Shown here: piece by piece, positions 3,398 to 4,891 of the stretch | Position numbering within the stretch: the stretch's first letter is position 1 | Layout of the letters: the number at the start of each line of letters is the position of its first letter | IMG/VR virus record: IMGVR_UViG_2585427789_000012 | Origin: a virus | Taxonomy: Duplodnaviria; Heunggongvirae; Uroviricota; Caudoviricetes | Reading direction: 5' to 3' (one strand) | Length of the DNA stretch: 4,891 nt | Translations under genes and position numbers: made by a program | Notes under the pieces: generated by a model | What the model was told of the DNA's origin: nothing | The model's input: only the letters and a program-made list of their open reading frames with translations | The model's database searches: none

Positions 3398-3602
3398 TCA
3401 GGATGGCTTTAGCCTCATTCAGCGCCATATCAGCACTAAATTGCATAAGAGCCAGTGAGTGAGGAACGAAAGCCCCGGTATATTCTGTTTCGCTGGTGGC
3501 GTGCTTATGCGCCTTGTCTGCGATAACAGAAATATCAATCAGCGCGTGCATCAGCGTTTTGATGGCTTCGGCGGCTGCGTCCGGTGTGGTTTTATTGTGC
3601 AT
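3363..3602 (-). CDS. Hypothetical protein, 79 aa
   Basis: ATG at 3602 with SD-like GGGGGA 6-7 nt upstream; it overlaps the stop of the upstream gene by 11 nt. The C-terminal codons run through the G8 homopolymer. Confidence 0.6.
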   Translation of the reverse strand: MHNKTTPDAAAEAIKTLMHALIDISVIADKAHKHATSETEYTGAFVPHSLALMQFSADMALNEAKAILIADCENGGGYA

Positions 3603-3798
3603 AGGTTTCCCCCTGGCGAATACGGGCGGCGAATACCATCACGCAGCCATCAGGAGATTGCTGACGCGCTTCCTGTTCGCTGGTGGCCTCAATGGTAATC
3701 ACGCGCGGTTGTGCCGTGCTCAGGGCGATAAAACGCCAGATGTATTTATTCAGGTTGTACGAGTCCCGCCCTTGCGGGTGTCTGGTATAATTTCTCAT
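3592..3798 (-). CDS. Small protein, 68 aa, first gene of the leftward operon; possibly Icd-like (host cell-division inhibitor family)
   Basis: ATG at 3798 with SD GAGG at 5-nt spacing. It is the C-terminal 68 codons of the 382-aa track ORF (MRNYTRHPQGRDSYNLNKYIWRFIALSTAQPRVITIEATSEQEARQQSPDGCVMVFAARIRQGETYAQ). The Icd-like label is from recalled annotations of P4-like prophages and is not verified. Confidence 0.55.
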   Translation of the reverse strand: MRNYTRHPQGRDSYNLNKYIWRFIALSTAQPRVITIEATSEQEARQQSPDGCVMVFAARIRQGETYAQ

Positions 3799-3905
3799 AG
3801 CTGCCTCGATACTTCTGCTATCGTTGGTGGTTAGACGCCCTGCATGTGTTGCGAGCACTGCGGGGCGTTGCTTAATTTGAGTGACAAAACTCAAACTGTG
3901 CGCAC

Positions 3906-3935
3906 AGATTAAAATCATGTGTGCGCACATGTCAA
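3906..3935 (-). promoter_or_regulatory. Candidate leftward early promoter (-35 TTGACA at 3935-3930; -10 TAATCT at 3911-3906, 18-bp spacer)
   Basis: Perfect -35 hexamer on the minus strand with a moderate -10; predicted start near 3899, giving a ~100-nt leader before the ATG at 3798. Confidence 0.4.
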
Positions 3936-3938
3936 TAC

Positions 3939-3967
3939 TTAACATCTCATTTTTTTTGCTGTATTGT
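3939..3967 (+). promoter_or_regulatory. Candidate rightward promoter (-35 TTAACA at 3939-3944; -10 TATTGT at 3962-3967, 17-bp spacer)
   Basis: Sigma70-like hexamers read by eye, positioned divergently from the leftward promoter and upstream of the ATG at 4004. Confidence 0.3.
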
Positions 3968-4003
3968 GTGCGCCCATAAAGTCCATTTAAGTGAGGTGCA
4001 TCA

Positions 4004-4201
4004 ATGTCTAGCGGTAACACAAACAACAAATCAGCAAAGAAAAATATTCGATTCCCACATGAGCTTATAGATGGGATTGATGCCAGCGTTGAACAAGAAA
4101 AATTAACTAATCCTAGTGCTAATTTTTCCGCATGGGTCTTAGATGCCTGTGGACGCAAATTAAAATATGAACAGCGCCGGAAGGCCAAAGAATCAGAATA
4201 A
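4004..4201 (+). CDS. Small DNA-binding protein, 65 aa; putative ribbon-helix-helix (CopG/Arc/ParD-like) regulator
   Basis: SD AGGT 6 nt upstream of the ATG. KKNIRFPHELIDGIDASVEQEKLTNPSANFSAWVLDA fits the RHH pattern of an N-terminal beta-strand followed by two helices. It is divergent from the early operon and next to the palindromic operators. Confidence 0.5.
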   Translation: MSSGNTNNKSAKKNIRFPHELIDGIDASVEQEKLTNPSANFSAWVLDACGRKLKYEQRRKAKESE

Positions 4202-4243
4202 TCACTATCAGCGCCGTGGTGTGAGTAACTACGGCGCATTGCT

Positions 4244-4432
4244 ATGCAGGGCAACACAATGACCGATAAAGAATTGACCAAAACATTATCACCGACACGG
4301 AAAAGACGGCGCAGAAAGATAGAGCATGAATCAGAAAGATTCGCACCTTGTTCGTTTGCTCTTGAGAAATTCCTTAAAGAGCGCAGGAAAAAACTCTCGT
4401 TGCAAACCTTGGAACGAACCAAATCTGACTGA
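4244..4432 (+). CDS. Hypothetical very basic small protein, 62 aa (or 57 aa from the ATG at 4259)
   Basis: ORF containing TRKRRRRK; weak SD for the 4244 start, AGGG 9 nt upstream of the 4259 start. A terminator follows. Coding status is uncertain. Confidence 0.3.
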   Translation: MQGNTMTDKELTKTLSPTRKRRRRKIEHESERFAPCSFALEKFLKERRKKLSLQTLERTKSD

Positions 4433-4498
4433 TCACATTGCCCACCAGCCGCAAATGTGGCATTGTTGGTGATGCTTTTGTTTTCCCTTGTTCCCACT

Positions 4499-4527
4499 GG
4501 CGACCCTTTTGCGGTCGCCTTTGTTTT
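4499..4527 (+). terminator. Rho-independent terminator (stem GGCGACC/GGTCGCC, 7-nt loop, TTTGTTTT tail)
   Basis: Perfect 7-bp GC-rich stem at 4499-4505 and 4513-4519, followed by a U-tract at 4520-4527. A weaker bulged hairpin with a U-rich tail precedes it at 4443-4484. The reverse complement has no U-tract, so it is + strand specific. Confidence 0.65.
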
Positions 4528-4565
4528 GCCTGTTATCCGGCAATAGTGGCGCTTCACCACACGGT

Positions 4566-4574
4566 TGATATAAT
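4566..4574 (+). promoter_or_regulatory. Extended -10 promoter element TGATATAAT
   Basis: Perfect TATAAT at 4569-4574 with TG at 4566-4567; no good -35, which extended -10 promoters can lack. Predicted start near 4581. Confidence 0.4.
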
Positions 4575-4580
4575 TCCCCT

Positions 4581-4651
4581 GCACTGATCCATTTTTTTCG
4601 CAGCAGGTTAATTGTTCAGAAAGGCGGTTCCTTATCGGGGCCGCTTTTTTT
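4581..4651 (+). ncRNA. Candidate ~70-nt small RNA (from the extended -10 promoter to an intrinsic terminator)
   Basis: Predicted start near 4581. Terminator hairpin GCGGTTCC (4624-4631), loop TTATC, GGGGCCGC (4637-4644; two G-U pairs), then T7 (4645-4651). No ORF of note lies between them. Confidence 0.3.
4624..4651 (+). terminator. Rho-independent terminator (8-bp stem, 5-nt loop, T7 tail)
   Basis: Stem GCGGTTCC/GGGGCCGC with two wobble pairs, followed by TTTTTTT at 4645-4651. Confidence 0.55.
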
Positions 4652-4891
4652 ATGCCTGAAAATACCCGATAACATGGCTTTTTAGTTTCACCAGGACGAA
4701 CGAAGCCCCGCCCCTGTTCGGGCGTATATCCAGTATTCATGGTTAGATCTCTGTGTTAGTGGATGGGTGGCGGCGGTGCGCCGCCAGCCTGATTAGTGAA
4801 CTGCCTCGCGGCTGTCCTTCCATGCCAGAACTTCGGATAAAGACCAGCCAACGGAACGACCGCCGAGTTTACGCCGTGATGGGAATTGTCC

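Follow-up and report, generated by a model that had tools for sequence, protein, structure and literature searches.

A candidate antisense RNA gene of about 70 nucleotides beside alpA in a capsid-forming satellite of Escherichia coli

Antisense and small RNAs in the control regions of mobile elements are a familiar kind of regulator. Here we describe a unit of this kind in a 4,891-nucleotide stretch of DNA (IMG/VR record IMGVR_UViG_2585427789_000012), which is called the window throughout. The unit lies on the plus strand at positions 4566-4651 and comprises an extended -10 promoter element, a predicted RNA of about 70 nt and an intrinsic terminator, T2. The window belongs to a capsid-forming phage-inducible chromosomal island (cf-PICI), a satellite integrated in comM of Escherichia coli. 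Within it, the unit is placed between a rightward repressor operon, formed by a YlcI/YnfO-like gene of ribbon-helix-helix (RHH) type, ORF62 and the terminator T1, and the convergent int-alpA genes. The complete unit is also antisense to a long minus-strand open frame, and this open frame is a more unusual feature than the RNA unit itself. As judged from the sequence, the unit is probably a real RNA gene. The narrower proposal that this RNA acts in cis, as an antisense RNA on a transcript which continues from alpA, is put forward tentatively.

Two phage RNAs offer a first comparison. The oop RNA of phage lambda (~70-80 nt) has its own constitutive promoter and an intrinsic terminator, and it is convergent with and antisense to the 3′ side of a key regulator mRNA in the immunity/decision region. 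The unit described here resembles it in these respects, but no sequence relation is known, and the overlap with alpA rests on presumed read-through. Furthermore, the unit is antisense to a long open frame and behaves as a present/absent cassette. The sar RNA of phage P22 is a 68-69-nt antisense RNA with its own promoter, located in the immI region among small RHH repressors (Arc, Mnt) and convergent/divergent promoters. It covers the ribosome-binding site of ant, whereas the part of the minus-strand frame that the unit covers is codons ~30-54 in the window and its first ~30 codons in islands of the U90 type; the two share no sequence similarity. The hallmarks of the oop/sar type, namely an own promoter, an own intrinsic terminator and a predicted RNA of ~70 nt, can all be read in the present sequence.

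Other systems share single aspects. The c4 RNA of P1/P7 and the CI RNA of P4 are small RNAs in phage or satellite immunity regions beside an Icd-like gene, where a block in the translation of an upstream frame makes downstream transcription fail. They are processed from the strand of their own target, act in trans on repeated sites and control icd-ant or the P4 left operon. In contrast, the unit is encoded on the strand opposite to the Icd-like gene, has its own promoter and has no second target copy in the window. FinP of F-like plasmids is a constitutive antisense RNA of ~70-80 nt directed against the mRNA of its element's activator, and a FinO-domain protein is encoded in the island studied here. 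However, FinP covers the 5′ untranslated region (UTR) and the ribosome-binding site of traJ, and a FinO-like gene accompanies the unit in only 13 of the 54 promoter-type islands with enough flank (tblastn). The co-occurrence expected of a FinP/FinO pair is thus missing, which rules out the ProQ/FinO protein as a dedicated partner. Finally, AgvB, AsxR and other EcOnc RNAs of O157 (PMC4104026) are short mobile-element RNAs with a conserved 3′ part, a more variable 5′ part and intrinsic terminators, but their place is the moron site of lambdoid prophages, on the downstream side of PR'.

The RNA itself appears to be undescribed in the literature and databases searched. A comparison of 4566-4651 with Rfam 15, including AgvB, AsxR, Esr41, the int-alpA motif and FinP, returned only Atu_C8 (E = 8.9; 17.6 bits against a gathering score of 50), which amounts to noise, and no family attained its gathering score in the whole 15-kb island. 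The C4 covariance model (P1 c4/P4 CI) had no match in the window at cmscan E values up to 10. Full-text literature searches with a 12-mer, written as DNA and as RNA on both strands, led only to an unrelated insect barcode paper. In the literature on PICIs with small RNAs nothing relevant was found, and the cf-PICI paper (bioRxiv 10.1101/2022.09.08.507074) contains no mention of an RNA regulator or of how alpA-linked expression stays silent. Two catalogued RNAs were considered as the unit and rejected: Esr41 (EcOnc14) belongs to SpLE1, and EcOnc33, an RNA of ~71 nt which has a terminator, lies in prophage Sp6 beside a deacetylase gene.

The promoter element reads TGATATAAT and occupies 4566-4574 on the plus strand, with TG at 4566-4567 and TATAAT at 4569-4574. 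It is indeed the perfect extended -10 which the initial annotation had reported. A perfect TGNTATAAT is a strong sigma-70 signal; dinucleotide-preserving shuffles predict 0.14 of them per window, against two that are present. At the distance of 17 bp upstream no usable -35 is found (GTGGCG stands there), and for lack of a recognisable -35 a two-hexamer promoter scan did not list the element. The second perfect extended -10, TGGTATAAT at 3783-3791 (plus), falls within the 5′ end of the Icd-like gene and is directed toward the RHH gene. It occurs in just 11 of 106 unique related versions and is probably allele-specific or incidental.

Copies of the unit were retrieved from IMG/VR in two independent ways, with an 18-mer pattern of the body (94 loci) and with a pattern of the -10 plus the first 22 nt downstream (81 loci). 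The body-anchored set holds 46 unique promoter-type copies without indels. TGATATAA is unchanged in all 46, and the last T is altered in one copy, which reads TGATATAAC. The neighbouring columns of the same copies are variable: five of the six directly upstream and four of the five directly downstream are polymorphic. When the columns that the search pattern fixes are set aside, the longest stretch without variation is the -10, and this in copies with at least four kinds of right flank and several left flanks. Coding on the minus strand was considered as the cause of this conservation and ruled out, since the invariant positions 4567, 4570 and 4573 are third-codon positions of the minus-strand frame. 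In addition, substitutions in that frame near the -10 and across the RNA unit are mostly nonsynonymous, with eight nonsynonymous changes and one synonymous change between the window and the PI7 type.

The promoter region upstream of the -10 (4529-4565, plus) is conserved as well. It is kept from GGCAAT onward even in L021, in which the sequence farther upstream is replaced; the replacement reaches GGCAAT, ~45 bp before the start site, where the boundary of a promoter is expected. At the -35/spacer position this region holds the imperfect palindrome GTGGCGCTTCACCAC (4546-4560). Other islands carry the alleles GTGGCGCTTCGCCAC or TGGTCATTTCGACCA, such that a palindrome is retained with a different sequence. 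It could be an operator or an RNA hairpin. Several palindrome variants show a C-to-T change in the 3′ arm, which would retain G.U pairs in a plus-strand RNA.

From the position of the -10, we infer a start site between G4581 and A4583. With the 3′ end in the T7 run, the predicted primary transcript (4581-4651, plus) would be 67-71 nt long, in agreement with the ~70 nt proposed earlier. Its U-rich 5′ part, GCACUGAUCCAUUUUUUUCGCAGC (4581-4604), has several point variants among islands, and the first ~20 nt are more variable than the body. Directly upstream of the terminator follows a nearly invariant single-stranded 13-mer, AGGTTAATTGTTC (4605-4617). The pattern GCRGYAGGYTAATTGTTC, which contains AGGYTAATTGTTC and allows C/T at two positions, one of them inside the 13-mer, is matched by 79 of the 81 promoter-anchored loci, and the other two are one base off. 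The equivalent of the 13-mer in the O157 Sakai element Sp7 is GGGTTATCTGTTC. A small open reading frame (ORF) within the RNA was also considered and rejected, as the RNA has no ATG or GTG and its sole UUG frame has no stop before the terminator.

T2 (4618-4651, plus) is composed of the 5′ arm GGCGGTTCC (4623-4631), the loop TTATC (4632-4636), the 3′ arm GGGGCCGC (4637-4644) and seven T residues (4645-4651). The stem-loop with a T7 tail seen earlier is therefore present, as a hairpin at 4623-4644. The hairpin folds at -19 to -20 kcal/mol, and AGAAA upstream of the stem is able to extend the pairing with the U tail. For the RNA 4581-4651 the predicted folding energy is -20.4 kcal/mol (z = -2.6; 3 of 200 shuffles are as good), and the centroid structure is the terminator hairpin alone, with ~40 nt free at the 5′ end. 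A simple terminator scan did not list T2, yet all 24 variants fold at -14 to -22 kcal/mol. These variants were folded one by one, because the two stem types are shifted by one base in the ungapped alignment and a single consensus structure is unusable. Type A reads GCGGYTCC, loop WTWTC, GGGGCCGC and T7; type B reads GCGCTCCG, loop GYAA, CGGGGCGC and T5GTT. Each type is fully paired, their registers lie one base apart, and three stem positions differ on both sides. Within type B, L143 carries a compensatory double change from C-G to A-T. Other stem variants replace G.U by G-C (several) or C-G by U.G, the loops vary freely, and the stem is weakened in four singletons only. By this pattern of substitutions, T2 is taken to be under structural selection. 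The initial annotation had named conservation of promoter and terminator in homologous elements as its own test. The former is found as the invariant -10 of the 46 copies, the latter as pairing that is kept through two different stems and a compensatory change; the comparison thus favours a real transcription unit.

The unit is frequent in E. coli. A BLAST search of 5426 complete E. coli genomes located its 3′ half (~4599 to the T tail) in 1096 of them (~20%) and the promoter-containing unit in 289 (~5%). The prototype PICI EcCICFT073 carries the full unit, at 1380040-1380134 of NC_004431.1 on the minus strand, and the enterotoxigenic strain 2014EL-1345-2 is another carrier. All copies come from Escherichia and are 80-100% identical. 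The phage collection held no record with the unit, and the plasmid collection gave four matches, all from E. coli. A scan of species-representative genomes with the 18-mer found chance matches in unrelated phyla only, and is uninformative on other genera. Within the reach of these searches, the unit occurs in Escherichia only.

Its presence at the site was sampled through the ORF62 protein, and hence independently of the unit, at 76 loci with enough downstream sequence. Three states were found. T1, promoter, body and T2 are all present at 33 loci. At ~28 loci, T1 and the promoter are missing and the 3′ UTR of ORF62 leads directly into the 3′ half of the body and T2, as in O157 Sp7. At 15 loci only T1 is present and alpA follows at once. 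When islands that share their flanks are compared, the difference amounts to 134 bp; this segment begins directly 3′ of the T run of T1 and extends to where the T2 tail ends. On this comparison the unit, whose body of ~45 nt is flanked by the promoter and the strong terminator T2, is a discrete 134-bp present/absent cassette after T1, which makes the earlier description as 'self-contained' apt. T1 is found wherever the promoter is; in such islands T2 is redundant for the operon and can be understood as the terminator that serves the new promoter. At least four kinds of right flank occur, always with a convergent alpA or BRO-N gene: the alpA is either 189 nt long and lies at ~140 or ~300 nt, or is 207 nt long and lies at ~25 nt. 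T1 (4499-4528, plus), formed by GGCGACC/GGTCGCC at 4499-4519 followed by TTTGTTTTG, is the best match of the terminator scan in the window. The unit is thus correctly placed just past a real terminator of the rightward genes. In other islands a hairpin with another stem, GGCCACC/GGTGGCC, is kept at this position.

The claim that the unit has no intervening ORF and lies in an ORF-poor stretch stands for the plus strand, but not for the minus strand. There, the whole unit falls inside an ORF of 382 codons (3592-4740, minus), the presumed cis target, the C terminus of which is fused to an Icd-like domain. In the window the frame starts with an ATG at 4740, 52 nt past the alpA stop. Over 3799-4740 the frame contains no stop codon, whereas the other two minus-strand frames contain 19 and 21; a stop-free frame arose in 0 of 20000 shuffles. 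Across 72 unique junction versions, which represent all three cassette states, its open length is 232-441 codons, compared with ~43 and 21 codons for the other two frames. Of 102 unique versions around the unit, 96 have at least 150 open codons. Antisense to the frame lie the RHH gene and ORF62, both with coinciding third-codon positions, and also T1, the promoter, the RNA and T2. It ends at, or in frame with, the Icd-like gene, which is also seen in L144-L223, in L155 (2385-3293) and in Sakai, where the frame is the separate 247-codon ECs_1576.

Start sites of the frame differ between islands. In a T1-only island it begins ten nt after the alpA stop, at TAA-AGGGGAGCAT-ATG (AGGGGAG-N3-ATG), again with the Icd-like fusion. 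U90 has a GTG or ATG, accompanied by GAGG, 5-20 nt past the alpA stop. The family match is restricted to residues 290-382, which are Icd-like, and the first 290 residues have no family match. PGAP labels the stretch 'hypothetical protein' or 'Icd-like' pseudogene. The pattern of changes suggests that the frame is probably kept open and translated while its product is largely unconstrained across the unit. No canonical minus-strand terminator was found between the alpA stop and the unit, either in the terminator scan or in the sequence. Since the frame is kept open across the unit, a minus-strand transcript very probably crosses it and would offer the RNA a perfect cis target. At the start of the frame, the first ~19 codons (MNTGYTPEQGRGFVRPGET, 4684-4740, minus) are kept across the window and the O157, O145 and CFT073-type flanks with several third-position changes, and this short N-terminal peptide looks to be under real coding constraint. 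In other flank types the frame begins MTYKTK... or MNITKS....

The preferred interpretation, held at somewhat less than even confidence, combines a real RNA gene with a cis-antisense mode of action. The extended -10 at 4566-4574 would act constitutively and start transcription near 4581-4583, and T2 would stop it at 4645-4651. The ~70-nt product would be U-rich and unpaired in its 5′ half and would end in the terminator hairpin and its U7 tail. Its target would be the minus-strand read-through transcript from alpA, which would carry the long frame, up to or into the Icd-like gene, ahead of the replication and packaging genes. Pairing with the read-through alpA mRNA, together with head-on transcription, could lead to cleavage or destabilisation of this mRNA, or could uncouple translation of the leader frame. 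The outcome would be a damping of leaky alpA-linked expression while the island is quiescent. When the free 40 nt of the 5′ end were scanned for pairing against the 15-kb island, the perfect antisense was the only strong partner. The best other site in the island, at -32.6 kcal/mol, lies inside the range of the shuffled-query maxima (-26 to -34), and no second copy of the 13-mer beyond chance occurs in the window with up to 3 mismatches.

Several points weigh against this cis-antisense role. In the window, the distance from the alpA stop to the downstream unit is 142 nt, and that from the ATG of the frame is 88 nt; the unit can therefore not block initiation directly, and read-through is needed for the target to exist. 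A plausible leftward promoter with operators at ~3900-3960, recognised by eye, means that the Icd/replication operon may not depend on alpA read-through. The function must be accessory, given that 15 of the 76 islands lack the cassette and ~28 lack the promoter. None of the 64 listed peaks of the Hfq cross-linking study of O157 Sakai by Tree et al. falls in Sp7; this test is weak, as the Sp7 copy is promoter-less. Lastly, the near-invariance of the 13-mer exceeds what pure cis-antisense pairing needs and hints at a trans or protein-binding role.

A trans-acting role is indeed the main rival. Here the RNA would be an Hfq- or ProQ-dependent small RNA whose single-stranded AGGUUAAUUGUUC region pairs with host or helper-phage mRNAs, in the manner of SviR, AgvB and AsxR. 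We regard this as rather unlikely, although the 13-mer speaks for it in that it is almost invariant in the promoter-anchored copies even at positions which are silent on the other strand. The architecture is also of the Hfq type, with a free 5′ part, the A/U-rich single strand GGUUAAUUGUUC before the GC hairpin and a U7 tail; in type B, however, the tail is weaker (U5GUU). The 3′ half is retained even where it is merely the 3′ UTR of ORF62, as in 3′-UTR-derived small RNAs. A ProQ/FinO-domain protein is encoded in the island, but its gene accompanies the promoter in the minority of islands given above. Against a trans role, no target rises above the shuffle background within the 15-kb island, and nothing in the analysis, whose pairing scan covered that island, supports the suggestion of the initial annotation that helper or host functions are controlled in trans. 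The missing Hfq peak in Sp7 counts in the same direction, within the limit set by the promoter-less copy.

It is also conceivable, but improbable, that there is no RNA gene at all. T2 would then be a second terminator or insulator which shields alpA and int, and TGATATAAT would be conserved by ancestry or as a DNA-binding site without firing. The ~28 islands in which T2 is the sole terminator of the ORF62 operon, with no promoter present, fit such a role. Some of the conservation must be inheritance, since all copies are from Escherichia and 80-100% identical, and the poorly kept element at 3783-3791 illustrates that perfect extended -10 matches can be incidental. On the other hand, the -10 at 4566-4574 remains invariant amid variable neighbours and across varied flanks, and its sequence is a strong promoter signal. 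Moreover, T1 accompanies the promoter, which leaves T2 redundant as an operon terminator in exactly those islands.

Least probable, and by our estimate quite unlikely, is an antitermination loading cassette, in which promoter and palindrome load a regulator, perhaps AlpA, for read-through of T2 and the 70-nt RNA is the by-product of a terminated leader, like lambda 6S RNA. The strong promoter, short leader and intrinsic terminator reproduce the layout of Q/AlpA targets (lambda Q at pR'-tR'), alpA (PF05930) is the immediate neighbour, and AlpA of P. aeruginosa binds between -35 and -10 at PalpB-tB and bypasses the downstream terminator (PMC7969949), a position which corresponds to that of the conserved palindrome (4546-4560); but only antisense alpA, antisense int and the island end lie downstream on the plus strand, so that no gene would be switched on by read-through, the sequence lacks the P. 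aeruginosa motif GGGACGN5GGTA, and the E. coli PICI AlpA is at most a putative antiterminator.

The surroundings of the unit identify the island. Over its whole length of 4891 bases the window matches the chromosome of E. coli strain E600003 with 100% identity, and other near-identical carriers are mostly enterotoxigenic isolates. An annotated identical record shows a ~15-kb island inserted in comM/yifB beside the ilv genes. Its first block of genes consists of int, alpA, the Icd-like gene, DUF4222, a D5-type primase, ssb and a ProQ/FinO-family gene; the second block contains the major capsid protein, prohead protease, portal, connector, HNH, terS and terL. The gene set of a cf-PICI is thus present, with int, alpA, a primase-type replication gene with adjacent iterons, and capsid and packaging genes. 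Pfam assigns AlpA to PF05930 (2.7e-18), finds the ProQ/FinO domain and recognises D5_N and Pox_D5 domains in the primase. These genes are on the minus strand of the window, while the plus strand carries just two small genes. The homologous element of O157 Sakai, 'prophage Sp7' (1594711-1610171), equals EcCIEDL933. The EDL933 element is the cf-PICI prototype, in which alpA is required for induction (bioRxiv 10.1101/2022.09.08.507074).

The window contains the 3′ part of alpA (4793-4891, minus), which is convergent with the unit and identified by the record annotation and Pfam (Phage_AlpA); its stop codon is at 4793-4795. Directly 3′ of this stop lies a GC hairpin (4766-4789; GGCGGC, loop, GCCGCC), whose stem is kept and whose loop is variable among islands. 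As neither strand has a T run, the hairpin is not a canonical terminator; it may be a 3′ stabiliser of the mRNA. The first gene of the rightward operon (4004-4201, plus) is assigned to DUF3950, NF041551 and phrog_949, and its YlcI/YnfO-family product looks like an RHH DNA binder by sequence. ORF62 (4244-4432, plus; phrog_21027) is the second gene. Between the RHH gene and the divergent Icd-like gene, the palindrome TGTGCGCACA occurs three times at 3895-3977. By eye, a leftward promoter of the TTGACA type is found there, with one TGTGCGCACA copy within its spacer. The equivalent place in O157 Sp7 holds ATGGTAATTACCAT repeats and a different RHH allele. With its three palindromes, the putative operator region looks like an immunity-type switch, and the differing repeats and RHH alleles of the window and Sp7 suggest immunity-type specificity modules.

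Other features of the island are more remote from the unit. The leader of the Icd-like gene contains a hairpin (3828-3870, minus; ACGCCCCGCAGTGC...GCAGGGCGT) that is kept in the window and in O157 Sp7 though the surrounding switch region differs. Members of PHROG 6196 align to the translation of 3828-3870, and the starts of Icd-like genes may thus be misannotated, or the leader may be structured. At 558-783, directly downstream of the primase gene, an array of ~ten GGTGAACAG iterons in both orientations is expected to be the replication origin of the island; these iterons gave spurious microRNA-like Rfam matches. The ProQ/FinO-domain protein (PF04352) is encoded at 11273-11803 of L010, ~200 bp left of the window and between ssb and the capsid gene, and many sister islands have a PerC/PchE-type regulator in its place.

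A broader proposal, which we consider possible but doubtful, and slightly more so than a trans-acting RNA, is that the cassette is one arm of a hitherto unrecognised and fully overlapping sense/antisense switch governing PICI induction. Selection would hold a frame of 230-440 codons open, with a largely unconstrained protein sequence, and this frame would lead on to the Icd-like gene and to the genes for replication and packaging. By being translated, it would shield alpA-driven transcripts from Rho-dependent termination. The mRNA of the RHH operon and, where present, the ~70-nt RNA are perfectly antisense to the leader frame; they would uncouple translation of the frame or cause cleavage, which would keep the late genes of the island silent for as long as alpA transcription does not outrun these antisense RNAs. 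The logic would be like that of the P1 c4-icd-ant circuit, but here in cis and from overlapping genes.

The conserved antisense frame raises the question of which strand, or whether both, are functional, and this bears on genome annotation. PICIs and cf-PICIs are widespread satellites which shape phage-bacterium dynamics and gene transfer in E. coli, and alpA is known to be required for their induction. A dedicated RNA beside alpA, with the full unit in the model element EcCICFT073 and the 3′ half in EcCIEDL933, would provide an easily testable handle on the silencing of alpA-linked expression.

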